From the NCBI GenBank assembly GCA_965230995.1, contig OZ246398.1, positions 73,868-137,867 of the forward strand: a DNA stretch of 64,000 nucleotides, written 5' to 3'. Made by a program: the position numbers and the translations under genes. Of the stretch, positions 6,197 through 62,949 are shown one piece after another (position 1 is the stretch's first letter; each line of letters begins with the position of its first letter). This DNA is from an uncultured Candidatus Saccharibacteria bacterium. GTDB taxonomy: Bacteria; Patescibacteriota; Minisyncoccia; Phycocordibacterales; G965230995. The notes under the pieces were generated by a model. It did not search any database and had not been told where the DNA came from. It was given only the letters and a program-made list of their open reading frames with translations.

Positions 6197-6295
6197 AATT
6201 TTTTTAATAATAACTAATAGTTCAATTGACCTAATTGAATACTTAAATATTATACTATTCTTTCGTTAAAAGAAGAAATTAGTTATCAACAAAAA

Positions 6296-6893
6296 AACGA
6301 CTTCGTTATTTTGTGCGCGCGGGAGGACTCGGTCACTCTCGTGGCTTTTTATTTCGTCCATTTGATGTTCCAGGACTCGGTCACGAATCACTAAGTCTGC
6401 TCATATTGCAAAGCAATATTGCGCGGACTAAGTGTTCGCGACCCCGCCTCACTTCTGAATTCTTTTTGGCAAAAAAGAATTCAGACTCCGCTTCGCTCCG
6501 TGCGTTCCGGCCTTCTCGTCCTGTCTCGAAACACCGGACAACAAAAAAGTGTACTAAGCGTACACTTTTTTGTTGTCAGTGCGCGTGCCAGGACTCGAAC
6601 CTTACAGGTTCAGTACCCCGATTGGATAATTACTTCGTCCTAGACGGACTCGTAATTATGCTCAATCGGGCTTCGAGTCCTGGACGAAAAGTCCCCCGGA
6701 CTTTTCTCACCAGCACAAAACAACTTCGTTATTTTGTGCGCGTGCCAGGACTCGAACCTTACAGGTTCAGTACCCCGATTGGATAATTACTTCGTCCTAG
6801 ACGGACTCGTAATTATGCTCAATCGGGCTTCGAGTCCTGGACGAAAAGTCCCCCGGACTTTTCTCACCAGCACAAAACAACTTCGTTATTTTG
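6296..6893 (-). repeat. tandem repeat array downstream of tRNA-Ile: two identical 157-bp units (6579-6735, 6736-6892) each ending in the 3' 22 nt of tRNA-Ile, plus degenerate older copies and long hairpins (6296-6578)
   Basis: Period 157 bp read directly from sequence (GTGCGCGTGCCAGGACTCGAACC recurs at 6579, 6736, 6893); degenerate GTGACCGAGTCCTCCCGCGCGCACAAAATAACGAAGTCG at ~6296-6330; 18-bp perfect hairpin 6541-6580; 14-bp palindrome 6456-6490. Confidence 0.85.
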
Positions 6894-6966
6894 TGCGCGT
6901 GCCAGGACTCGAACCTGGGACCACGGAGGTATAAGCTCCGCACTCTACCAACTGAGCTACACGCGC
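6894..6966 (-). tRNA. tRNA-Ile (anticodon UAU), no encoded CCA
   Basis: Reverse complement GCGCGUG-UA-GCUC-AGUUGGUA-GAGU-G-CGGAG-CUUAUAC-CUCCG-UGGUC-CCAGG-UUCGAGU-CCUGG-CACGCGC-A; canonical cloverleaf, U33, A37, anticodon UAU. Confidence 0.7.
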
Positions 6967-12252: not shown

Positions 12253-14310
12253 CTATGAAACAGCTTGATCAAAATCAATTAGATAGAGCCTAGGTGTCCT
12301 TGTCATATCTAATTCTCCATCTTCATCTCTAAAGAAACGTAGACAAAAATTAGCATCGTGAGTATGCCCATGCTTAATATGTAACTTATCAAGCATAGCA
12401 ATGATTCTATCTCTTTGTTCCACTAGATCTGGCGTAAATAGTGTAGTTGAAATCCTCTGCCATGAGGCTAAATCTAAATCAAGGACACCACTATATACAT
12501 CGACTAATCCATTCTCTTTTAAACTATATGATTGAATTGGTTCAATTGGTACATAATCAAAACCGGCCTCCTTCCACTCCTGATGATTTTCATATAATTT
12601 TTGCCACGTTAAAAAAGAAGTTGAATTAATGTGTCTTATAATTATTTTGTCTTTTAATGGACCCCCGACCAGCGTCGTCTCAGATCCTGTTTTTTCAAAT
12701 TTCTTTCTCGAGAATGATTCCGTATTTAAATCTGGATGTTTGTTGTATAAGGGAGCAAATATAACATATTTTAGTAATTTATTTTCTAGAAGAACGTCAA
12801 ATATTTTTTTCCTCTCTGCTTCTGAAACAGACCGAATCATTAGAGCACCTATCCTTTGAATAATAGGATCATTACTTTCGAGCGCTTGTTCAATGAGTGA
12901 AAATCTTTTTTTTACTGGAAGATACTCAATCATTTGAGCACCAATCTTTCGGACTAAAGGATTATTACTTTTGAGTGTTTGCTCGATGAGTGAGATCATT
13001 TCTTCATCCGATACAGACAGAATCATTTCGGCACCGATCTCTTGGACTAGAGGATCATTACTTTCAAGAGCCTGCTTAACAAGTAATGATCTTTCATCTT
13101 CTGGCACATACCAAATCATCCGCATGGCTTCTTTTTGGACATTTGGATCATCACTTTCAAGGAGACGTTGAATTTTTTCAGTGACTATTTGCAATAAAAC
13201 GTCTCTTTCATTTAGTGGAGCATACTTAATCATTTCGGCACCAATCTTTTGAACTGCGTAGTTATTACTTTCAAAGATTTGTCGTATTTTCTTAGTTATT
13301 GTTTTTCTAAGTGAATCTTCTTCTTCATTTCCTGAAACAAACATGGTCATTTCGGCACCAATCTTTTGGACATTTGGATCATCACTTTCAAGGAGACTTT
13401 GAATTTTTTCAGTGACTATTTGCCATAAAGAATCCCTTTCATTTAGCGGAGCAGACCGAACTGTTTGAGCACCGATCTCTTGGACTAGAGGATCATTACT
13501 TTCAAGAGCCTGCTTAACAAGTAATGATCTTTCATTTTCTCGTGCATACTCAATCATTTGAGCACCAACCTCTTGGACTTTAGGGTCTTTACTTTCAAGA
13601 GCCTGCTTGATGAGTAATGACATTTCTTTTACAGGAACAAAACGAATCATTCCAGCACCAATCCTTTGAATCGCAAGGTCATCACTTTCAAGGAGACGTT
13701 GAATTTTTTCAGTGACTATTTTTCTAAGTAAAGATCTTTCTTCATCTTCTGAAGCAGACCGAATTATTTCAGCACCGATCTCTTGAACTAAAGGATCATT
13801 ACTTTCAAGAGCTTGCTTGATGAGCGAAAATCTTTTGTGTGCTGGAGCACACCAAAACAATCCTGCGCTTATCTTTCGAACTTCAGGGTTTTTACTTTCA
13901 AGAGCCTGCTTGATGAGCGAGAACACCTCATCCACTTTAGGACAGTATCGAATCATCTTAACACCAATCTCTTGGACTTCAGGGTTTTTACTTTCAAGAG
14001 CCTGCTTGATGAGTGGATATCTTTTATCTGTTGAAAAATACTCAATCTTTTCAGCACCAATTCTCTGAATCGCAAGATTATCGCTTTCAAGAGCCTGCTT
14101 GATGAGCGAGAATATTTCATCTACAGGAGAATTATTCAATTTTCTTTCAAAATCCGCGACTAATCTTATTCTTTCATCTTGCACTTTACATCGATCATAT
14201 CTTTCGAGATCTTTCTCTGTAATCTTTCCATGACCAGAAATTTGATACATATCGACAGGAAACACCTCTTCTCTTTGTCTACCTTTCTCTGTATTTTGTA
14301 TTTTTTCCAT
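12253..14310 (-). CDS. HEAT/PBS-lyase-like repeat protein (about 13 tandem ~31-aa repeats) with C-terminal ~230-aa domain carrying kinase-like HxD..N and IDFD motifs
   Basis: Repeats of SLIKQALESNDPLVQEIGAEMIR...; C-term HIKHGHTHDANFCL...LYLIDFDQA. ORF track start at 14394 replaced by internal Met (MEKIQNTEK) because the first 28 codons look non-protein-like. Confidence 0.55.
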   Translation of the reverse strand: MEKIQNTEKGRQREEVFPVDMYQISGHGKITEKDLERYDRCKVQDERIRLVADFERKLNNSPVDEIFSLIKQALESDNLAIQRIGAEKIEYFSTDKRYPLIKQALESKNPEVQEIGVKMIRYCPKVDEVFSLIKQALESKNPEVRKISAGLFWCAPAHKRFSLIKQALESNDPLVQEIGAEIIRSASEDEERSLLRKIVTEKIQRLLESDDLAIQRIGAGMIRFVPVKEMSLLIKQALESKDPKVQEVGAQMIEYARENERSLLVKQALESNDPLVQEIGAQTVRSAPLNERDSLWQIVTEKIQSLLESDDPNVQKIGAEMTMFVSGNEEEDSLRKTITKKIRQIFESNNYAVQKIGAEMIKYAPLNERDVLLQIVTEKIQRLLESDDPNVQKEAMRMIWYVPEDERSLLVKQALESNDPLVQEIGAEMILSVSDEEMISLIEQTLKSNNPLVRKIGAQMIEYLPVKKRFSLIEQALESNDPIIQRIGALMIRSVSEAERKKIFDVLLENKLLKYVIFAPLYNKHPDLNTESFSRKKFEKTGSETTLVGGPLKDKIIIRHINSTSFLTWQKLYENHQEWKEAGFDYVPIEPIQSYSLKENGLVDVYSGVLDLDLASWQRISTTLFTPDLVEQRDRIIAMLDKLHIKHGHTHDANFCLRFFRDEDGELDMTRTPRLYLIDFDQAVS

Positions 14311-14408
14311 TATTGATAAATAATATAACGTCTTAATAAAAAATAAAACCCGTTTAAAATCCCATTGCCTATTGCGAGGGTAAACAACAATCACTAATAC
14401 TTAACCAA

Positions 14409-14454
14409 TTGACACCACTAAATAAATACATAGTCTTTAAATCAGGCCAAGGAG
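14409..14454 (+). promoter_or_regulatory. promoter and RBS of GC-rich island 1 (TTGACA ... AAGGAGG)
   Basis: TTGACA at 14409-14414, AT-rich -10 region, AAGGAGG 14448-14454 followed by GTG 14461. Confidence 0.4.
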
Positions 14455-14460
14455 GAATTG

Positions 14461-14750
14461 TGACATTAGTACAAGTCCTTGCGGTTCAGAAACAGAGCGA
14501 ACAACCGCTAACCAAAGGAATGCTCCCAGGGATCATTGCAGAATGCCACAGGTGGCCATGGCCCGGCAGAACATCTGTTCGGTATACCGCCACAAACGGC
14601 AACACCATTGTGGCAACCATGCTACAGATTAACGGTAGCCACACTGTCACGAGCATGCAAAATGCCGTACAGCTTATGCTCACCAGGGGAGAATCTGAAT
14701 TCGTAACCAAAGAAAACGGGGGGCTCATTCTATGGACTGTCGTTCCGTAA
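14461..14750 (+). CDS. hypothetical protein encoded in GC-rich island 1
   Basis: 96 aa from GTG after AAGGAGG (the ORF track uses a longer frame from 14409). Codon usage and G+C are clearly higher than neighbours. No recognisable motifs. Confidence 0.35.
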
Positions 14751-14777
14751 TGCCGGAAGACCTCCGACAGAACGGAG

Positions 14778-14804
14778 AAGGCGCGCCACGGGCGCGCCTT
14801 TCCT
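14778..14804 (+). terminator. rho-independent terminator (GGCGCGCC palindrome hairpin) ending island 1
   Basis: AAGGCGCGCC-ACG-GGCGCGCCUU then UCCUCAUUU. Confidence 0.6.
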
Positions 14805-14811
14805 CATTTAT

Positions 14812-15939
14812 CTACACCCCTTTCTCCAAAATCAAATCCCATTTTGTTCTGAGAATTCTCTCTACTGATTCGTTTATTCTATCCTCACTAATCTCACCAT
14901 TATCTACCGCCTCTAATATCCTTTCGTATATTTGTTTTTGAATGTCTCTCGAATATGTACTGATTATAATATCAACACCGGATAGAATTGCTTTCAGACT
15001 ATTTTCGGCAATGTTTCCACCTACAGAAACCATTTCCATATCATCGGAAATGATCACACCCTTAAAACCAAGCTCTCCTCTCAAAATATCAACCAAGAAT
15101 TTTTCTGAAAGCGTAGCCGGTTTATCATCGACAATTGGCACGACAATATGAGCCGTCATAATCGGAACATAAGGATATTTTTCTATTACTTTTTTAAATG
15201 GCAAAATATTATTTTCCAAATCCTCTTTTGAAATTGAAATCGAAACACCTTTTTTGTGTGGATCAAGAGAAATATTTCCATATCCTGGAAAATGTTTTGC
15301 AACTGGAATAACACCCGAAGATTCATATCCTTTTATCATTTCAATTCCAAGCTCTGATATTTTTTCTGGTGTCGTACCAAAAGTCCTTTTGTATAGATAA
15401 GAATTCCTATCGGTTACATAATCCAAAACCGGAGCAAAATTCATATTTACGCCAATAGAAGAAAGCTCCTCCCCTCTTTTCTTTGAAATTTTAAAAGCAT
15501 CCTCTGTATTTTTAATTTCAACCTGTTGTGTTAATTCAGAGAAAAAATTAAAACGAATTACATCTCCCCCTTCTTGATCGGTAGCGATAAATAGAGGAAT
15601 ATTTGCAAAGTTTTGCATTTGAGAAATCAAATCTCGGGACTGACTCTCATCTAAAATATTTCTACCGAGCAAATTAAAACCTCCAACATTATAATCCTTT
15701 ATCATTTCTATAGTATCGGGATCGAGATTTTTTCCTGGAAGACCGATAATGAGCATCTGACCAATCTTTTCTTTTATCGTCATGGATGACAATTTCTTCT
15801 CTATTTCTACCGAAACAGTATCTTCTTTTGTCTCAATATTGTTATTTTCTATGTCGACATTTTTTTCATTTTTTAAATATACAAAAGAAAAAACTAGAGC
15901 AAGGACAATTACGAGGATTACAAAAAGTTTTTTAAACAT
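14812..15939 (-). CDS. glycoside hydrolase family 3 N-terminal domain protein (beta-N-acetylhexosaminidase NagZ-like), membrane anchored
   Basis: 375 aa; N-terminal TM; KHFPGYG motif and GH3 fold order (IATDQEGG, FAPVLD). Confidence 0.65.
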   Translation of the reverse strand: MFKKLFVILVIVLALVFSFVYLKNEKNVDIENNNIETKEDTVSVEIEKKLSSMTIKEKIGQMLIIGLPGKNLDPDTIEMIKDYNVGGFNLLGRNILDESQSRDLISQMQNFANIPLFIATDQEGGDVIRFNFFSELTQQVEIKNTEDAFKISKKRGEELSSIGVNMNFAPVLDYVTDRNSYLYKRTFGTTPEKISELGIEMIKGYESSGVIPVAKHFPGYGNISLDPHKKGVSISISKEDLENNILPFKKVIEKYPYVPIMTAHIVVPIVDDKPATLSEKFLVDILRGELGFKGVIISDDMEMVSVGGNIAENSLKAILSGVDIIISTYSRDIQKQIYERILEAVDNGEISEDRINESVERILRTKWDLILEKGV

Positions 15940-15980
15940 AAAAGAAGTCTATCATGACAATATGCAAGGATTAAAGCTAT

Positions 15981-16009
15981 TTGACTTTATACACAAAGAT
16001 TGTATTATT
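15981..16009 (+). promoter_or_regulatory. sigma70-like promoter, first of three homologous promoters in GC-rich island 2 (TTGACT-N16/17-TATTAT)
   Basis: TTGACTTTATACACAAAGATTGTATTATT; near-identical copy at 16466-16496 and related copy at 16991-17019 (TTTACT-N17-TATAAT). Confidence 0.5.
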
Positions 16010-16048
16010 ATTTTGGCTTAGAGTTCCTAACACAAGCGGAGAAAAGCG

Positions 16049-16396
16049 ATGAGTGAAGTCACTGTAACCCAGCTCGTTAAACATGAGCACTTCCTGAGGG
16101 ACATCGGGTGTCTGAAGGGGTTCCTCAGTCATCTCGGCTGGCATCTTCCGGAAGATGTATTCGTGGTATGCCTACATCTTACATGGAAGGAAATCACCCT
16201 ACTCATGGTCAAGGAAACAATGGGGATCGGAGTTCCACATAAGTGCACAGTGATGGGTACCACCTCTATCACGGCGGAGAACGTTGTCCGCATGATTGAC
16301 TGGACCTTCAGACACCATTACGAACTCATCGTGAGACCTCCGGACAACAAGTTCCAGTTCCGCTTCATTCATCAACTGCAATCCCCTGGCGCCTAG
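16049..16396 (+). CDS. hypothetical protein A of GC-rich island 2
   Basis: 115 aa, GGAG RBS, GC-rich codons, followed by terminator hairpin 16424-16449. Confidence 0.4.
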   Translation: MSEVTVTQLVKHEHFLRDIGCLKGFLSHLGWHLPEDVFVVCLHLTWKEITLLMVKETMGIGVPHKCTVMGTTSITAENVVRMIDWTFRHHYELIVRPPDNKFQFRFIHQLQSPGA

Positions 16397-16537
16397 GAAG
16401 CGCCACCCTACCCACCAAGACAGCCCACCAAGGCGCGTCTGGTGGGTTTGTCATTTATGCAGAACTTTACTTTATGTATAAAGATTGTATTATAATTTTG
16501 GCTTAGAAGTTCTGAACTCACAACCGGAGACCAGGAA

Positions 16538-16900
16538 ATGGCACCCGCCACAACCAAAGATATCCACATTGGACGCGAACAATTGTATGTGTTCTTAAGT
16601 GGAAAGGATGGACACGGTGGTCTAGAGGCGCAATTCGGAGACAACGGAGTAGTCACCCTACACGTTATGCATCGAGGAGAAGGTTCTGCAAAAACCATCA
16701 CGATCCAAGTAACGATGGAGAGACGTGTTGGTTTCCAGGAAGAAAAGCTAGTGAAGGTGATCGAAGAGTTTGACGGAGAGGAAATCAATGGATGGATTTC
16801 CTCCCTGATGAAGGGAAACAACATTCCACTCTTCTTCTTACCACCCAACCGCTTCCACCTGTTCCATTTCAAAATCGATGATATACCCCCCGGCGTCTAG
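16538..16900 (+). CDS. hypothetical protein B of GC-rich island 2
   Basis: 120 aa, own promoter copy and GGAGACC RBS, followed by terminator 16928-16953 homologous to the first. Confidence 0.4.
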   Translation: MAPATTKDIHIGREQLYVFLSGKDGHGGLEAQFGDNGVVTLHVMHRGEGSAKTITIQVTMERRVGFQEEKLVKVIEEFDGEEINGWISSLMKGNNIPLFFLPPNRFHLFHFKIDDIPPGV

Positions 16901-17065
16901 GAGACGCCACCCCACCCACCAAGACAGCCCACCGAGGCACGTCTGGTGGGTTTGTCATTTATGGCTAAAATATGTGGCTTTTTTGTACTATTTACTTTTA
17001 AACGCGTTTGTTGTATAATATATGAGAAACAGTACCGTACAACAAACCAATTAGGAGACGCTACC

Positions 17066-17563
17066 ATGCGTTACTTCACCATCGTTCTATTCGCGGTCAC
17101 GATGTTCATCACCGGTAGCGGGTGCATTGCCTACTACCAGATCAACGGAAAGGAAGGAGTCCTCGCCGTTCCACCCCTTGTGGGTACGCCGGTGGTGGTT
17201 GTCGCTTCCTGCGACCGCTGTCACTACCGTCACTGCCGTTGCGAGCAGTATGAATACCGCTGGCAGTGCGAGATCTGCAACCAGTACTTTGGTCGGCTTG
17301 CCGACCAATACTGGGACGGAGGACGTCGCACCTGCCGGTGGTGCCATCATGAAAAGTGGCCCTACCGCGCGTGGCAGTGCACAGTGTGCCATGGTTACTA
17401 CTGGCCAGTGGATGTTCGCAACAACATACACCGTGGCCATAACACTTGCTGGCGGTGTCTCGTGAGAGACAACATGGAGTGCGAGCAAGGCTGTAACGAA
17501 CCAACAACACTGCCCTGTCGCAGGTGGTATCATAGCTATTTCGGACCACCTCCTCCGAAATAG
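17066..17563 (+). CDS. cysteine-rich (about 20 Cys, multiple CxxC) secreted or lipoprotein-like protein of GC-rich island 2
   Basis: Start at internal ATG after AGGAGACG RBS (ORF track starts at 16946). N-terminal TM/lipobox-like FITGSGC; CDRCHYRHCRC, CEIC, CRWC, CTVC, CWRC; terminator 17567-17615. Confidence 0.45.
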   Translation: MRYFTIVLFAVTMFITGSGCIAYYQINGKEGVLAVPPLVGTPVVVVASCDRCHYRHCRCEQYEYRWQCEICNQYFGRLADQYWDGGRRTCRWCHHEKWPYRAWQCTVCHGYYWPVDVRNNIHRGHNTCWRCLVRDNMECEQGCNEPTTLPCRRWYHSYFGPPPPK

Positions 17564-17631
17564 CCCCCCGCCAGAGAGAACCCGCCAGTACACGGCGCCT
17601 CTCTCTGGCGGGTTTTCTTTTGTCTTAAAAT

Positions 17632-18087
17632 CTATTTCTTCTTTAGATTGTTTTCGATAATAGTTTTGTATATATCACCTCTTGTGACAATACCGACTAA
17701 TTTGCCATTTTCATCCATTACGGGCATCCTGTGAATACTTCGTGCGAGCATAATTGCGCCAACTTTCATAATAGGATCATCTGGGGAAACAGAAACGACT
17801 TCACGCGACATAAATCTTTCGATTGGGTTCTTTCGTATTTCTTGTATTTTTGATTCTCTTTTTTCTGGATCAGTATAGCTCTCTGGGTTTTCGTAGAAAC
17901 TTCGGTAATAAGGGAAAAGTACTTTGTATAAATCTTTGTCAGAAATCATACCGATAACATCACCGCTTTCATTAACGACAGGACAACCTTTTATACCGCT
18001 TTTTAACAGAAAAGTGGCCGCGTCTTCATAAGTAGTATCAAAAGGTAGAGTAAGCACTGGCGAATGCATTAATTCTTTTGTTTTCAT
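17632..18087 (-). CDS. CBS-domain pair protein
   Basis: 151 aa; two CBS repeats (VMTRDV.. / GIVTRGDIYK), no fused catalytic domain. Confidence 0.7.
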   Translation of the reverse strand: MKTKELMHSPVLTLPFDTTYEDAATFLLKSGIKGCPVVNESGDVIGMISDKDLYKVLFPYYRSFYENPESYTDPEKRESKIQEIRKNPIERFMSREVVSVSPDDPIMKVGAIMLARSIHRMPVMDENGKLVGIVTRGDIYKTIIENNLKKK

Positions 18088-21641: not shown

Positions 21642-21954
21642 ACATATATTCTACCTTTTTTCTTCCAAACAAAAAACCCTTCGCAAGCGATGGGTTTTTT
21701 GTAGGGTGTCTGGTAATATTGCCCTAGATAAAATTCTAGGTGGGTGCCCTCAGCAGTCATTTCTCTGAAGAAATTAATCCTCATCGATACAAATGCAATT
21801 TGAGCTCCCTTACAATATGTTAACTAGATAATATTCCAGCTCACCCTTCTCTATTATACACCTAAATTTTTGATAGCAAAACTTTTTGCAAATTCAAAAC
21901 AAATTCCGTGGCAAGTAAAGATATATTATTATAAAAAATCCTGTACTATTTATA

Positions 21955-22252
21955 GCGGAGACTCGGTAGGGTCACTTAACTTAGTGGGAAGCAAAGGGTT
22001 ACTGACTTCTCGAGCCGAGCGAGCAACAGTCAAAACTCTTCGCCCACGGAGATAGATTTCTCTGTCTTGGGGGCTTGAGAGGCACTCATTGCGGAGGGTT
22101 TGTTCTATCTCCATCGCCGTCCTTTTTGCTTTATGGGGTAGGAACGCGTGCACAGGGATTCGCACTTGGTTTTCGCTTTTGTCCACAACACCAAGCATCC
22201 CGAACACGCCGACATGGGGAGGCTTACGCGAGTCTCCCCTGTCTTTATATAT
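21955..22252. ncRNA. candidate structured non-coding RNA of unknown class (not RNase P, not tmRNA)
   Basis: ~300-nt non-coding stretch, locally GC-rich relative to flanks, closed by a perfect 9-bp terminal helix (GGAGACUCG 21958.. / CGAGUCUCC ..22250), bracketed by hairpin terminators at 21667-21700 and 22256-22280. Strand undetermined. Confidence 0.3.
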
Positions 22253-22285
22253 ACAAAAACAGGCTTTGGGCCTGTTTCTGAAATT

Positions 22286-46870: not shown

Positions 46871-46958
46871 CTTTACTTTTACAAAAAATAATATAGGGTT
46901 TTACCCAGAGTCAGACATCCGTCTGACAAAAAAGAACCTCAAACAAAGACTGAAAGCA

Positions 46959-47570
46959 ATGGCCACAAACTGGAGAGTTCAATTCGAGAGACGTCGCGAG
47001 ATATGGGTCCACAACGGAAGCGATCACACACCGCATTTGGTGCTTCCATCCGGGCTTCACTCAGACGGCTTCTTCGATGTCGAGGGAATCAAGAACAACG
47101 ACAGTCAGCTAGCGCTCGCTTCTATTGGTCTTCTGACCAAACTTTCCGGCCACATTGACCTCTGCGAAGCAGGAGGTGTCGTTGGGCACCAACATCTCGC
47201 GGAACCACTATCGAATGACATCACCCGCCGCACGCACGGCAGTGAGAGCCTCTGGGTTTCCCCAATCGGGGAGTCAGACGAGATGTCATTTTGCGAAGAA
47301 GACGCAAAGTCACTTCTAAGGAGAACGGTCATCATCTGTGATTTCGTCGCTAGCGCTGGCCGTATCAAGTCAATGGCAGATGCTGTTCTGAGGGCTGGCG
47401 GGTTAGTACTGCCTTACGCGCTCGTCCTCCTCAACCCCATGGGCTATGCCCGAATCGACGACGACATGCTCGTCATCTCGCTCGTGAACCAGCAGATGAA
47501 CAGATGGGAGCCCCAAGACTGTCCCCTGTGCAAGATGGGGTCGTCAGCCGTCAGCACCATCGACAGTTAA
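46959..47570 (+). CDS. phosphoribosyltransferase-like (OPRTase/PyrE-like type I PRTase fold) protein with C-terminal CxxC, encoded in GC-rich island 4
   Basis: 203 aa; LPSGLHSDGFFDVEGI (PRPP-loop-like), RTVIICDFVASAGRIKSMADAV (PRTase hydrophobic-acidic motif); markedly GC-rich codons; hairpin terminator 47605-47628. Confidence 0.45.
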   Translation: MATNWRVQFERRREIWVHNGSDHTPHLVLPSGLHSDGFFDVEGIKNNDSQLALASIGLLTKLSGHIDLCEAGGVVGHQHLAEPLSNDITRRTHGSESLWVSPIGESDEMSFCEEDAKSLLRRTVIICDFVASAGRIKSMADAVLRAGGLVLPYALVLLNPMGYARIDDDMLVISLVNQQMNRWEPQDCPLCKMGSSAVSTIDS

Positions 47571-47632
47571 CCCCCTCGCCAAAAAAGAAATTGGTGAGAA
47601 CCCGGCTCCGCACACAATGCGGAGCCGAAACT

Positions 47633-48445
47633 TTAAAACTCAATTCTCCCTAATGTAATTGTGGACAAAAAAGGTATCGAGAGACTTTTTAATCTATCAA
47701 TTGTTTCTTTGCTTGGATGTCCGTATTGGTTGTTTTTGCCAGCAGAAATTATTGCAACCTTTGGTTTTACATAATTCAGAAAATCTTTTGAACTCGAAGT
47801 CTTTGAACCGTGATGCCCGAGTTTCAAAACATCACTCTGCAAATCATTTTTGAATTTAGAAATTAATTTTGCCTCTACTTTCTGTGTGGCATCCCCAGTT
47901 AAAAGAAAAGAACCTTTGTTCATTTGAACCCTTGCAACTATCGACCCCTCGTTTCCTTTTTCAACATTTTCTTTTGTAAATGGAAATAATATTTTCAAAA
48001 CTACATTATTACCTAAATCTATCACTTCCCCACTTTTGACTATTTTAACAGGAATATTCTTTGACTTTGCTTTTGATAAAAAATCGCTTGCTGTTTTTGT
48101 TGTGGTCTCCGCCCCATTTATCAAAACCAAACCAATATCATAGGAATCCAAAATATATTCAAATCCTCCAATATGATCCGCGTCAAAATGTGATGCCATA
48201 ATTACATCAATATGTTTATCTCCGTATTTCATCACTTCTCGCAATTCTGGAATAACTTCTTTCCCTCTACCCGAATCAAGCAAAAGCTGATTACCGTTTT
48301 TTGATTCAATTAAAATACTGTCCCCTTGGCCAACATCAAGAAAAACTAGTCTCTCAAAACTAACAGAAAAAGTTAGAGAATATATGAAGATAAAAATAGA
48401 AAAGAAGAAAAAAGACCAAACAGATATGACTAGATATTTCTTCAT
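47633..48445 (-). CDS. ComEC-type metallo-beta-lactamase domain protein (C-terminal half of ComEC as separate ORF with own TM anchor)
   Basis: LDVGQGDSILIE start motif of ComEC MBL domain, HFDADHIGG. Confidence 0.6.
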   Translation of the reverse strand: MKKYLVISVWSFFFFSIFIFIYSLTFSVSFERLVFLDVGQGDSILIESKNGNQLLLDSGRGKEVIPELREVMKYGDKHIDVIMASHFDADHIGGFEYILDSYDIGLVLINGAETTTKTASDFLSKAKSKNIPVKIVKSGEVIDLGNNVVLKILFPFTKENVEKGNEGSIVARVQMNKGSFLLTGDATQKVEAKLISKFKNDLQSDVLKLGHHGSKTSSSKDFLNYVKPKVAIISAGKNNQYGHPSKETIDRLKSLSIPFLSTITLGRIEF

Positions 48446-55478: not shown

Positions 55479-55513
55479 TTGACATAATTAAACGCCTAGT
55501 GTAAAGTCATGCA
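55479..55513 (+). promoter_or_regulatory. strong sigma70-like promoter of GC-rich island 5 (TTGACA-N17-TG-TAAAGT)
   Basis: TTGACATAATTAAACGCCTAGTGTAAAGT. Confidence 0.5.
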
Positions 55514-55812
55514 CAGAAAAGCCCGACAGCAATCGGGGTGAAGCACCAAAAACATTAACTGGCGGTCTAGCGTCCAAAGCAAGGACGTAGAGTGCACAAA
55601 GCCTAAGGGAAGCAAGGCAGTGCACCCCATTAGACGGGATATGGGCGTAAGTGACGCCCAGCCTACAAGTGAACTGACAGGCACTTGTTCAGCTTCCCAT
55701 GTGAAGAACTCTTTCTGTTGTGGACGGTCCAATCCCGTTGAAACAGAAGAGACGTATTGGTAGGAGAATTACCAATGTCAAAAAAATCTCCGGGCGGTTT
55801 GCTGACTGCCCG

Positions 55813-55861
55813 TCTGTCGCAGGATGGTTCCTGCCTGATGAGCCAATAATGGCGAAACAGA
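55813..55861 (+). ncRNA. hammerhead ribozyme copy 1, type III topology (closed stems I and II, open stem III), predicted cleavage after C55818
   Basis: UCUGU-C^-GCAGG-AUGGUU-CCUGC-CUGAUGA-GCCA-AUAA-UGGC-GAAAC-AGA; all catalytic-core nucleotides present. Confidence 0.8.
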
Positions 55862-56125
55862 ATATTTACCGTCGAGGACAACTCTTAACTGCTCGGGCGC
55901 ACGTGCACGATCGTAGGTCGGACGTGAACCACGCACATAAATAGAGACAACAAGGTATTGTGCTGAAAAGGCTTCGGGTAAGTGCCAGCTGTTTGCTGAG
56001 TAACTAACGGACACCCTTAGTAGGCAACCTCGCGGAGGATAGAATCTCTACTATCCCGTTGGTGTGACCATCGACAATAGTCACAAAAATTTTTGGAGAT
56101 GGTTTGCAAACACCTTCCATCTCCA

Positions 56126-56176
56126 TTCTGTCGCAGGATGGTTCCTGCCTGATGAGCCAATAATGGCGAAACAGAA
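56126..56176 (+). ncRNA. hammerhead ribozyme copy 2, type III, predicted cleavage after C56132
   Basis: 52 nt identical to copy 1 (UCUGUCGCAGGAUGGUUCCUGCCUGAUGAGCCAAUAAUGGCGAAACAGAA); stem III UUCUGU/ACAGAA. Confidence 0.8.
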
Positions 56177-56207
56177 ACAATTCCTTTGTAACTATTGGGA
56201 GGTTTGT

Positions 56208-56417
56208 ATGTTTGATTACCGAAGAGCTGAGCGTGACGCTGACATCGAAGAGCTGTACCGGGAAGACGAGCACCTCATGGTTAGTATCACAAAGCTCGAA
56301 ACCCTCAAACCCACCCCAAAAATCAAAGAAAGAATAAGTAAAATAAAGAGAAAACGTGCAGTGATACAATCACTGCTGAGGGAGGCCAAGGAAGACAGAT
56401 ACTTCCACGGCCTGTAG
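56208..56417 (+). CDS. small hypothetical protein (69 aa) downstream of hammerhead 2
   Basis: GGGAGG RBS 7 nt before ATG; charged helical MFDYRRAERDADIEELYREDEHL...; hairpin + T-run terminator ~56420-56455. The ORF-track 56064 start reads through the ribozyme and was rejected. Confidence 0.35.
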   Translation: MFDYRRAERDADIEELYREDEHLMVSITKLETLKPTPKIKERISKIKRKRAVIQSLLREAKEDRYFHGL

Positions 56418-56488
56418 CCCTCAAACCACCCGCAGGACTTAGGTCCGGGGTGTTTTTGTATTTGTGCATTATCAATTTAACCTATATT

Positions 56489-59731: not shown

Positions 59732-60475
59732 ATGGAAAATTTAGAACAAAATCTAGAAACTTACGGCTTGGATTCAAGGGAATCTCAGATATATGTTTTC
59801 TTATTAAAAAACAAGGATATCCCAGTTACACTAATACAAAAGGAGACCGTGCTACCCAGAGCCACTATATACAAAATTCTAGATAAACTATCACACAAGG
59901 GGCTAGTTACCAGTTGGACAAAAAATAACGTCAGACATTATTCTGCAGAGTCACCTCACATCTTAGAAAAAACAATTGAAAATAGACGACTAGCACTTAA
60001 CGAAGTCATGCCAGAATTAACAAGGCTTTTTGGTATAAATACAAAAAACCCTACATCAAAGCTATACATTGGGAAAGACGGCGTAAAAACAGCATACGAA
60101 ATAATTCTAGAAAAACTAAAACAACACAGAAAGACACGCATTTTAGTTTATACCGACGGAGGATTAGTCGAAATATTGCCAAAATTTTATACAGAGTGGA
60201 AGAAAAAAAGAGATCAAACTGGAGCATTTACAGAATTACTCACACCAGCAAAACTCAGTATCGAGAGGGGCTACCAATCGGATCCTTTTCGAGAAGTTAG
60301 ATATATGCAGGGCGACCTCCCATTCAAAGGAAGTTTCAATGTTGTCGATTCATTAGTTATTTTCTTTTCATTCAAAGAAGAAAATACTTATTCGGTCGTT
60401 ATAGACTCCCCTGTCATCGCCGAAATGATGACTGGTATATTCAAATATTTCTGGAATACGCTTGGTAATAGATAA
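59732..60475 (+). CDS. TrmB-like transcriptional regulator b
   Basis: GLDSRESQIYVFLLKNKDIPVTLIQKETVLPRATIYKILDKLSHKGLV; C-terminus YSVVIDSPVIAEMMTGIFKYFWN. Confidence 0.5.
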   Translation: MENLEQNLETYGLDSRESQIYVFLLKNKDIPVTLIQKETVLPRATIYKILDKLSHKGLVTSWTKNNVRHYSAESPHILEKTIENRRLALNEVMPELTRLFGINTKNPTSKLYIGKDGVKTAYEIILEKLKQHRKTRILVYTDGGLVEILPKFYTEWKKKRDQTGAFTELLTPAKLSIERGYQSDPFREVRYMQGDLPFKGSFNVVDSLVIFFSFKEENTYSVVIDSPVIAEMMTGIFKYFWNTLGNR

Positions 60476-60527
60476 AAGTTACAATCAGTTATTGCTACAA
60501 GCAATATTCTATGATATAATATAAAAA

Positions 60528-60838
60528 CCTGTTAGATAGACGCGGGGCGTAAGCTCTGAGGAAAGTCCGAACACAGCCAAGTATTTTACTTGGAGCAAGG
60601 TAGTGGGTAACACCCATCTGTCGAAAGACACGAGGTGCGAGCAGTGACGCCAAAGGCGAAAGCCCTAGGATTCCTTTGGGAATAATTTGATAGAAATATC
60701 AAAGTGAAACGGCTAAATCCTTATCCCTGTGCAAGGCCGTGCCGGTCGCAAGATCGGAGTGCCGCTTGAGCCGGCAAGTAATTGCCGGCCTAGATTAATG
60801 GCTATCCACGACAGAATTCGGCTTACAGACAGGCATAT
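60528..60838 (+). ncRNA. rnpB: RNase P RNA (bacterial type A-like, reduced)
   Basis: P4 strands GAGGAAAGUCCGAAC (60558-) and ACAGAAUUCGGCUUAC (60811-60826); GGUAAC loop (GUGGGUAACACCCAU), GUGAAACGG, GGUGCGAGCAGUGACGCC; TATAAT at 60515-60520; P1 CCUGU/ACAGG; terminator 60841-60868. Confidence 0.8.
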
Positions 60839-60876
60839 GAAAACCGCAAGCGTTCCGCTTGCGGTTTTCTCTTTGA

Positions 60877-62891: not shown

Positions 62892-62949
62892 GAACAAAGA
62901 AAACCGCAAGCGTTCCGCTTGCGGTTTTCTTTTTGCGACAAATAATGGT

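Follow-up and report, generated by a model that had tools for sequence, protein, structure and literature searches.

A GC-rich island of small promoter-gene-terminator units beside infC as a candidate ancestral hypervariable locus in Patescibacteria

A small GC-rich island was analyzed in a stretch of 64,000 nucleotides of contig OZ246398.1 (referred to as the window) from an uncultured Candidatus Saccharibacteria bacterium of the candidate phyla radiation (CPR, Patescibacteria). The island is located at positions 15975-17625 between a glycoside hydrolase family 3 (GH3) gene and a CBS-domain gene and contains three small open reading frames (ORFs A, B and C), each in a unit of its own. With moderate confidence, we interpret this island as a lineage-specific hypervariable locus, ancestral in a CPR clade, that is organized by recombination-prone regulatory shells and does not result from recent import. 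Each unit would be built from a strong sigma-70-type promoter, a Shine-Dalgarno sequence within a short 5' untranslated region (5'UTR), a small GC-rich ORF and an intrinsic terminator whose nested hairpins are specific to the family. In its basic form the locus would offer two slots, the first encoding a small cytoplasmic protein and the second a Cys-rich lipoprotein-like protein. The proteins would change fast, with the shells remaining recognizable because they are functional. We infer that the repeated shells serve as homology patches for recombination, which would homogenize them within a genome, move them across positions and species and turn over the content between them. The comparison set comprises three CPR species, specifically the window species, one represented by contigs L085 and L088 and one represented by contigs L086 and L087. 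Copy counts of motifs refer to the 64-kb window and the contigs of these relatives.

An initial sequence-only reading of the region had proposed three autonomous promoter-ORF-terminator units, and this was borne out by a sigma-70 promoter scan, hairpin folding and the presence of ORFs of 115, 120 and 165 amino acids (aa). All three units are encoded on the forward strand and are monocistronic, each with its own predicted promoter, Shine-Dalgarno sequence, ORF and intrinsic terminator. Unit A begins with promoter A (TTGACT-16-TATTAT, 15981-16008), which together with its 5'UTR and a GGAG Shine-Dalgarno sequence represents the first copy of a 5' shell (15978-16048). It is followed by ORF A (115 aa, 16049-16396) and the first copy of a 3' shell (16383-16459), identified by repeat search and folding and made up of hairpin 1 (16387-16405), whose loop contains the TAG stop codon, then a nested terminator hairpin (16410-16447) and finally the T-run TTTGTCATTTATG. 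Directly adjoining terminator A, unit B starts with promoter B (TTTACT-16-TATTAT, 16466-16493) and its 5'UTR, the second copy of the 5' shell (16463-16537), and continues with ORF B (120 aa, 16538-16900) and the second copy of the 3' shell (16887-16963), again consisting of hairpin 1, a terminator hairpin (16914-16951) and a T-run. Terminators had earlier been delimited too narrowly (16424-16449 for unit A), and the additional hairpin, whose loop includes the stop codon, had been missed. Unit C contains promoter C (TTTACT-17-TATAAT, 16991-17019) and a 5'UTR with an AGGAG Shine-Dalgarno sequence (together 16988-17065), ORF C (165 aa, 17066-17563) and terminator C (17567-17625). The latter forms a perfect 13-bp stem (17567-17579 / 17600-17612) with a second copy of the 5' arm in its loop, followed by a T-run, and ends 7 nt from the stop codon of the convergent CBS-domain gene. 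Compared with shuffled sequences, the 3' hairpins of units A, B and C fold exceptionally well (-32.4, -32.9 and -34.2 kcal/mol; z = -3.4, -4.6 and -5.8).

In all three units the Shine-Dalgarno sequence and the ATG start codon are properly spaced and the ORF takes up the whole stretch separating promoter and terminator. Stop-free runs in shuffled sequences are shorter than these ORFs (p = 0.0085, 0.006 and 0.0025 for A, B and C). Their GC contents at the first, second and third codon positions (GC1/GC2/GC3) are 0.55/0.34/0.63 for A, 0.57/0.33/0.53 for B and 0.54/0.49/0.66 for C, a coding-type pattern with GC2 lowest. Judged by these features, ORFs A, B and C are protein-coding, and expression of the three units is predicted.

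Units A and B share their shells. The 5' shells are 88% identical over 42 nt (15981-16022 versus 16466-16507) and the 3' shells 91% identical over 77 nt (16383-16459 versus 16887-16963) based on a repeat search, with the two terminators alone (TA and TB) reaching 94%. Both core motifs are found at these two places only in 64 kb, where shuffled sequences give an expectation of 0, and a self-BLAST of the window agrees, confirming the regulatory self-similarity that had been proposed. The 3' shared block begins 13 nt ahead of the stop codon. Its two copies differ at seven sites, including one compensatory pair in hairpin 1 (C-G in copy 1, U-A in copy 2) and one difference that gains a base pair; the rest lie at unpaired positions. 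When cassettes A and B are aligned globally, both ends align and the interior does not. Permutation analysis at the DNA level detected weak remaining similarity from the 5'UTR to the start codon (z = 4.0) and weak, decaying similarity over the last ~60 nt of the two ORFs (z = 3.3), the initial 60 nt and the central part showing none (z = -1.6 and 0.4). The encoded proteins are not similar to each other (BLASTP E = 3; permutation z = -0.7, below shuffles), in agreement with the initial assessment that the coding sequences of A and B are unrelated. A C-terminal motif seemingly common to both proteins was rejected, as it is not significant as protein and the DNA alone is weakly similar. The two units lie head-to-tail, and their homology is bounded exactly by the -35 region on one side and the end of the T-run on the other. 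Terminator A directly abuts promoter B, whose TTTACT starts 19 nt past the terminator hairpin at 16410-16447, so that the repeat can equally be read as one ~150-nt terminator-promoter block. Shells that are 88-94% identical around interiors without DNA similarity do not fit point mutation after a recent duplication. The pattern argues for homogenization of the shells by gene conversion or for entry of B by recombination through the shells. The extra unit B, located between A and C, may have arisen by tandem duplication with later shell homogenization or by recombinational insertion of a whole unit.

The same island is present in both related species. An exhaustive HMMER search with ORF C identified two homologues, P0003 (52% identity, E = 3e-41), encoded in L085 and L088, and P0004 (39% identity, E = 9e-15), encoded in L086 and L087; a fourth match, P0005, was discarded as a repeat-driven artefact. 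The gene order in these relatives is VanW, a small GC-rich ORF, the ORF C homologue, CBS on the reverse strand, infC, rpmI and rplT, and both island ORFs carry their own promoter and terminator. Host proteins of the relatives are 74-94% identical to those of the window, and their islands have a GC content of 0.46-0.62 within AT-rich contigs. In the window, the island is flanked on the left by the GH3 gene (14812-15939, reverse strand, GC3 0.27) and on the right by the CBS-domain gene (17632-18087, reverse strand), which is followed by infC-rpmI-rplT. Conserved in all relatives, this right-hand neighbour anchors the island. The VanW gene, located between GH3 and the island in the relatives, is missing in the window. 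Slot 1 is occupied by A in the window, by A1 in L086 (1863-2192) and by X in L085, and slot 2 by the ORF C family. A1 is homologous to ORF A (tblastn E = 1e-7; permutation z = 16.8) at ~30% aa identity and a nonsynonymous divergence (dN) of 0.88. The similarity of X to A1 is marginal at best (E = 0.038; z = 1.6), and no relation of X to A or B was detected. ORF C identities between the three species are 51%, 37% and 35% aa and follow the trend of the host genes, where the window species and L085 are usually the closest pair, which argues for vertical descent. Two of the three ORFs are consequently conserved host genes with syntenic orthologues, C at 51% and 37% aa and A at ~30% aa, and not freely exchanged foreign cargo. 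ORF B is absent from the islands of both related species and, among the three species compared, appears to be the only lineage-specific ORF, unique to the window genome. A search for relatives based on GH3 yielded only distant genomes (<=41% identity; labelled Saccharibacteria or Dojkabacteria) without synteny.

Comparison across species separates unit C from units A and B. Promoter C has only TTTACTTT and TTGTATAAT in common with promoters A and B and is 54-58% identical to them overall, no higher than other cross-comparisons of island promoters (52-61%). Promoter C and the P2 promoters of L085 and L086 correspond in position, each lying immediately 5' of the ORF C gene, and all begin with TTTACTTT. 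Cassette C belongs to a separate, orthologously conserved promoter lineage. Promoter A is homologous to P1 of L086 (80% over 55 nt), and P1 is also homologous to promoter B. Of the initial proposal that all three units share a promoter and homologous terminators, the part concerning A and B holds, while C has only generic promoter elements in common with them and a terminator of related design (60-63% identity).

The terminators carry signs of recombination across positions and species. All seven terminators from the three species align as a single family and fold alike. The 5' arm of the outer stem is repeated within the loop, where this copy gives rise to an inner stem, and a T-run follows. 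In A and B of the window, all three arm copies show a coordinated change from CCCGCC/GGCGGG to CCCACC/GGTGGG. The motif is found only at the islands of the window and its relatives and nowhere in 80 other loci retrieved via GH3 relatives from CPR and other bacteria. A dispersed repeat of the repetitive extragenic palindromic (REP) or miniature inverted-repeat transposable element (MITE) type was rejected, as copies are confined to the islands in the 64-kb window and the contigs of the relatives. Terminators group by genome and not by position (TA/TB 94%; L085_T1, L085_T2 and L086_T1 77-88%). The non-orthologous L085_T2 and L086_T1 are 88-95% identical (95% over 56 nt by BLAST), compared with 68% for the orthologous L085_T2 and L086_T2 and 62-68% for orthologous terminator pairs after ORF C generally. 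A break in identity is also observed between the two related species. L088 1-1420 and L086 371-1789 are 91% identical from the 5' end of GH3 through VanW to the -35 region of P1, L088 2547-4352 and L086 2947-4752 are 74.6% identical from CBS to rplT, and the slot-1 cargo between these tracts, X versus A1, is barely or not alignable. L086 originates from sample ERZ27247358, which is also the source of L085, a 99.8% identical contig of the L088 species. As judged from these alignments, the mosaic implies inter-species homologous recombination ending at the island. The notion of duplicated shells with exchanged cargo is supported to the extent that terminators group by genome and identity breaks from 91% to 75%, but not in the sense of freely exchanged foreign cargo.

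The island genes evolve fast and are GC-rich in all three species. Between species, ORF C diverges with a dN of 0.44-0.72 and slot 1 with a dN of 0.76-0.88, compared with 0.03-0.18 for CBS, IF3, L35 and L20, so that ORFs A and C evolve 3-10x faster than their neighbours. Synonymous sites are saturated between the three species (proportion of synonymous differences, pS, 0.5-0.8), and dN/dS is not estimable because the synonymous divergence (dS) is saturated. The GC content of the island in the window is 0.46-0.59 versus ~0.35 around it, and the GC3 of its ORFs (0.53-0.66) is ~2x that of host genes in the window (0.26-0.34). Across the three species, GC3 is 0.66-0.73 for ORF C, 0.58-0.72 for slot 1 and 0.28-0.43 for host genes. 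High GC3 in three species despite saturated synonymous sites cannot be a leftover of recent transfer. That it has not drifted requires selection, biased gene conversion or repeated re-import. In one further gene of the window, the composition is as anomalous as in the island. It is a 203-aa ORF (46959-47570) in a unit at 46880-47640 with a promoter-like region and a terminator, a GC content of 0.55 and a GC3 of 0.64. Its phosphoribosyltransferase signature is weak (TIGR01367, pyrE-type, E = 2.3e-5, far below cut-off; PF00156, E = 0.04).

ORF C is a conserved Cys-rich lipoprotein-like protein with predicted lipidation and may be disulfide-rich or metal-binding. It has a lipoprotein-type signal (MRYFTIVLFAVTMFITGSG|C) followed by a Cys-rich domain. 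The lipobox-like signal and paired cysteines suggested by the initial reading were recovered by pattern matching, with ORF C and both homologues matching a PROSITE PS51257-type lipobox (ITGSGC, IITTGC and VTGTGC) with the Cys at position 20. ORF C contains 16 Cys, not about 20 as first estimated, and five CxxC motifs. In the mature domain of ORF C and its homologues, 14 Cys are invariant (five CxxC, one CxC, one Cx3C), and third codon positions are scrambled between species (41-47% identity). The possibility that ORF C is a multihaem c-type cytochrome was rejected because CxxCH, present three times in ORF C, occurs only twice and once in the homologues, with only CR[WY]CH kept. PDB matches of ORF C to small tetrahaem cytochromes were insignificant (E = 0.33 with the single sequence, 0.015 with a profile), as was a weak PDB match to an NZF zinc finger.

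ORF A is predicted to be beta-rich and is a fast-evolving member of a small lineage-specific family. ORF B is an orphan without a homologue in any search. None of A, A1, X and B has a signal peptide. No usable match for A, B or C was found in Pfam, PHROG, PADLOC or NCBIfam, and no Rfam family matches the ORF segments. A word-indexed search of 5.8 billion protein clusters returned self-matches only; ORF A, which is unannotated there, had no match. AlphaFold models generated without an alignment had low predicted local distance difference test scores (pLDDT 60 for A and 37 for B), and a Foldseek search of the PDB with the model of A gave nothing below E = 0.05. It should be noted that gene calls in L002/L090 and L003/L091 place antisense ORFs of 55 aa and 148 aa in the positions of ORF A and ORF C, and that the gene call of L086 has an out-of-frame 123-aa ORF in place of A1. 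The miscalled antisense ORFs come from Logan assemblies, and ORF A is absent from protein databases. Since the GC-rich island genes are miscalled, they are under-represented in protein databases, and their orphan status is inflated.

Several points weigh against a recombining hypervariable locus. No recombinase or other dedicated machinery is encoded near the island. In all five contigs of the window species, the island has the same length and an identical sequence, without strain-level presence/absence polymorphism. Conservation of the shells could reflect purifying selection alone, and the differences of A versus B and of X versus the others could represent extreme divergence and not replacement. 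When B was compared with an A-family profile, the sole match fell at equivalent positions, at a non-significant E = 0.54. The three species available do not allow the direction and frequency of exchanges to be inferred. Finally, the lasting GC-richness of the island is not explained by this interpretation.

Two ideas about the purpose of the locus are tentative. It is possible, though we consider it doubtful, that slot-1 proteins act together with the Cys-rich lipoprotein as a conflict module, for example a toxin/effector-immunity pair or a system for phage or host exclusion at the cell surface. Diversifying selection on the module would drive its turnover. ORF B would then be an extra orphan slot-1 variant, similar to the orphan immunity genes of polymorphic toxin loci. 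The consistent pairing of a small cytoplasmic protein with a lipoprotein in three species fits this idea, as do the very high dN of both, the recombination signatures flanking the locus and the addition of B with its own promoter. The searches speak against it, as no similarity to a toxin, immunity or defence family was found and the best PADLOC match (E = 0.012) is below the usable level; moreover, dS is saturated, the models are poor (pLDDT 60 and 37) and the fold search is empty. That the proteins have a cell-surface or conflict-related role under diversifying selection is a guess based on their rates and pairing. We assign a similarly low probability to a dedicated diversification locus, in which the shells would be recombination handles for swapping or renewing a gene for a cytoplasmic protein and one for a Cys-rich surface lipoprotein, possibly employed in conflict with hosts or phages. 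The high GC content would be maintained by this process through GC-biased gene conversion, or else by selection on messenger RNA (mRNA). Such a locus would parallel the PeSL shuffling of phages (see below) in a cell and combine it with a long-lived compositional island. The coding regions of A and C fold somewhat better than shuffled sequences (z = -2.6 and -3.3; B -1.2), which hints weakly at RNA-level selection.

A third explanation, which we regard as unlikely, is that the units are recently acquired mobile cassettes from a GC-richer donor inserted beside infC, for example an integron-like array, phage morons or a prophage remnant. It is suggested by the GC3 contrast with host genes (0.53-0.66 versus 0.26-0.34), by the separate promoter and terminator of each unit, by the 5.8 billion protein clusters giving self-matches only and by other integration signs in the window, namely repeated 3' halves of tRNA-Ile and twin hammerhead ribozymes. 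Against it stand the syntenic orthologues of ORFs A and C, whose divergence tracks the host tree and whose GC3 is equally high despite saturation. Among called genes within ~6-10 kb of the island, no integrase domain or phage gene was found, and no attC core (GTTRRRY) lies within ~10 kb. Scans and BLAST searches of IMG/VR, phage and plasmid records returned no true match to the shells; one IMG/VR match (L001) to the shell motif lies inside a GC-rich phage gene and is due to chance. The single metagenome match to a shell is located in a Firmicutes-like contig (L084, 7489-7575, reverse strand) after an ahpF terminator, where TCATTTATGTAGA is followed 24 nt on by TTGTATTATTATTTTGGCTTAGA, matching the T-run and the -10/UTR of A and B. 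This contig has the -10/UTR 23-mer and the TCATTTATG tail (left-flank p = 0.007), and because it has neither hairpin nor cassette, the match is probably due to chance. An 11-nt direct repeat, TTCTTTTGTCT, at 15823 and 17615 was rejected as a target-site duplication because its left copy lies inside the GH3 coding region.

Phage morons are promoter-gene-terminator units of atypical composition that are located between phage or prophage genes and missing from related genomes. The island units resemble them as autonomous units with their own promoter and terminator and a base composition unlike that of their neighbours, but differ in that there is no prophage context and the composition has not ameliorated. 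Presence of the island at the same site in three species indicates that it is old and not a moron-like recent insert. Chromosomal integrons such as the VCR arrays of Vibrio are characterized by attC repeats with a GTTRRRY core, intI, attI, a Pc promoter and mostly promoterless cassettes. Conserved hairpin-forming repeats of ~80-150 nt between unrelated small orphan ORFs (ORFans) are a shared feature. Unlike integrons, the repeats at 16383-16465 and 16887-16969 are terminators ending in a T-run and have no attC R/L boxes or GTTRRRY core, their stem being followed by GGGTTTGTCATTTATG, each unit has its own promoter and there is no intI or attI nearby.

It is likewise improbable that B is a plain tandem duplicate of A which diverged by point mutation under strong positive selection, without recombination or replacement of cargo, the shells being alike merely through the recent date of the duplication. 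The head-to-tail homology from the -35 region to the end of the T-run, the weak residual DNA similarity in the 5'UTR and the last 60 nt of the ORFs and the extremely fast evolution of slot-1 proteins between species are all compatible with it. However, at shell identities of 88-94%, synonymous and conservative sites within the ORFs should still align, and neither the starts and middles of the ORFs nor the proteins do. An old duplication of A and B would require homogenization of the shells, which is itself recombination. Least of all would the GC-rich segments be structured non-coding RNAs with accidental ORFs, which we consider very improbable since, although other GC-rich islands of the AT-rich window are RNAs (transfer-messenger RNA (tmRNA), RNase P RNA, the hammerhead unit) and the coding regions of A and C fold somewhat better than shuffles, Shine-Dalgarno and ATG spacing, ORF lengths (p < 0.01 each), coding-type GC by codon position, the retention of ORF C as protein (14 invariant Cys with scrambled third positions) and the empty Rfam search all speak for coding sequences.

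A further comparison is with the hypervariable islands of streamlined free-living bacteria and with loci that have recombining flanks and are under diversifying selection, examples being hypervariable region 2 (HVR2) of SAR11 and capsule or O-antigen loci. In common with them, the island has a fixed site between conserved genes, content that differs in close relatives and abrupt breaks of flank identity. At 1.7 kb it is much smaller, and it differs in its monocistronic units with shared shells and its unfamiliar proteins.

The closest analogue appears to be the promoter-early stem-loops (PeSLs) of T4-type phages, which combine a stem-loop terminator with a strong sigma-70-type promoter and flank ORFans (PMC2839356, PMC4122927). 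PeSL repeats serve as homology patches for the insertion, deletion and replacement of ORFs, a process in which mini-circles arise (Arbiol et al. 2010, PMC2839356; Comeau et al. 2014, PMC4122927). The terminator A-promoter B block (16383-16537) has the PeSL layout, with its function being predicted, and near-identical copies surround ORFs A and B (promoters 88%, terminators 91-94%). In contrast to the dozens of copies in phages, there are two or three copies here. The setting is a cellular CPR chromosome beside infC and not the hyperplastic region of a T4-type phage, the sequences are unrelated to PeSLs, two of the three genes have orthologues and descend vertically, and the genes are stably GC-rich relative to the genome. 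The mechanistic analogy stands as an unproven one.

If the locus is hypervariable in this manner, promoter-terminator shells would organize gene turnover in a minimal cellular genome. To our knowledge, shells of this kind organizing gene turnover have so far been described only in T4-type phages. The locus would also represent a conserved pair of very fast-evolving genes, one encoding a Cys-rich lipoprotein, in uncultivated CPR bacteria, whose surface biology and host interactions are, as far as we know, largely unknown. The most surprising and least explained element is the persistent GC-rich composition. A GC3 of ~0.6-0.7 would have been held in a genome with a GC3 of ~0.3 through saturated divergence. 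Such lasting high GC3 contradicts the usual use of atypical GC content as a mark of recent transfer, and the island would be a compact test case in which biased gene conversion and selection can be weighed against each other.

A second GC-rich stand-alone unit, island 1 (14409-14812), adjoins the GH3 gene on its opposite side and has a TTGACA promoter, an AAGGAGG ribosome binding site (RBS) and two 3' hairpins. Its ORF (GTG start, 96 aa, 14460-14750) has no family match and no similarity to A, B or X. The T-run after its terminator (CCTCATTTATC) resembles the T-run of cassettes A and B (GTCATTTATG). Directly upstream of island 1, a 713-aa ORF (12253-14394, reverse strand) contains many HEAT-like repeats with internal DNA repeats of 74-93% identity and is possibly a variable repeat protein. 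The genes flanking the main island, namely GH3, CBS, infC, rpmI, rplT and an RNase J-like gene, are accompanied in the window by tmRNA and RNase P RNA. A segment at 21950-22260 (reverse strand) with a GC content of 0.47 follows a terminator-like hairpin. Its only ORF, of 85 aa, is doubtful in its coding pattern, and Rfam gave no match at E <= 1. The segment may represent a structured RNA outside known classes or a further small GC-rich gene.

The tRNA-Ile(TAT) gene (6893-6966, reverse strand) is preceded by exact tandem repeats of a 157-nt period (6579-6759 = 6736-6916, 100% over 181 nt). Each repeat starts with a copy of the tRNA 3' half (GTGCGCGTGCCAGGACTCGAACC), and a third partial copy is found at 6294-6331. 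In appearance, the array suggests either att sites left behind one after another by integrative elements or a repeat derived from the tRNA. A GC-rich unit at 55480-56455 has its own promoter (TTGACA-17-TAAAGT, ~55480) and encodes two type III hammerhead ribozymes (55811-55863 and 56125-56177) that are 314 nt apart and have an identical common 50-nt core. Their scores of 43.1 and 47.7 bits (E = 8e-8 and 4e-9) are just under the Rfam cut-off of 48.5. An RBS, a 69-aa ORF (56208-56417) and a terminator are located 3' of the hammerheads. Based on this arrangement, double cleavage could free a ~314-nt RNA that possibly circularizes.

A class A RNase P RNA with its own promoter is encoded at 60524-60841 (Rfam, 99.3 bits versus a gathering threshold of 100, E = 3e-31), with a TrmB-like gene (59732-60475) on one side and a terminator (60839-60875) on the other. 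This terminator is 97% identical to the terminator at 62899-62935, which belongs to the paralogous TrmB-like gene, and the 3' ends of the two TrmB-like paralogues are 81% identical over 116 nt.

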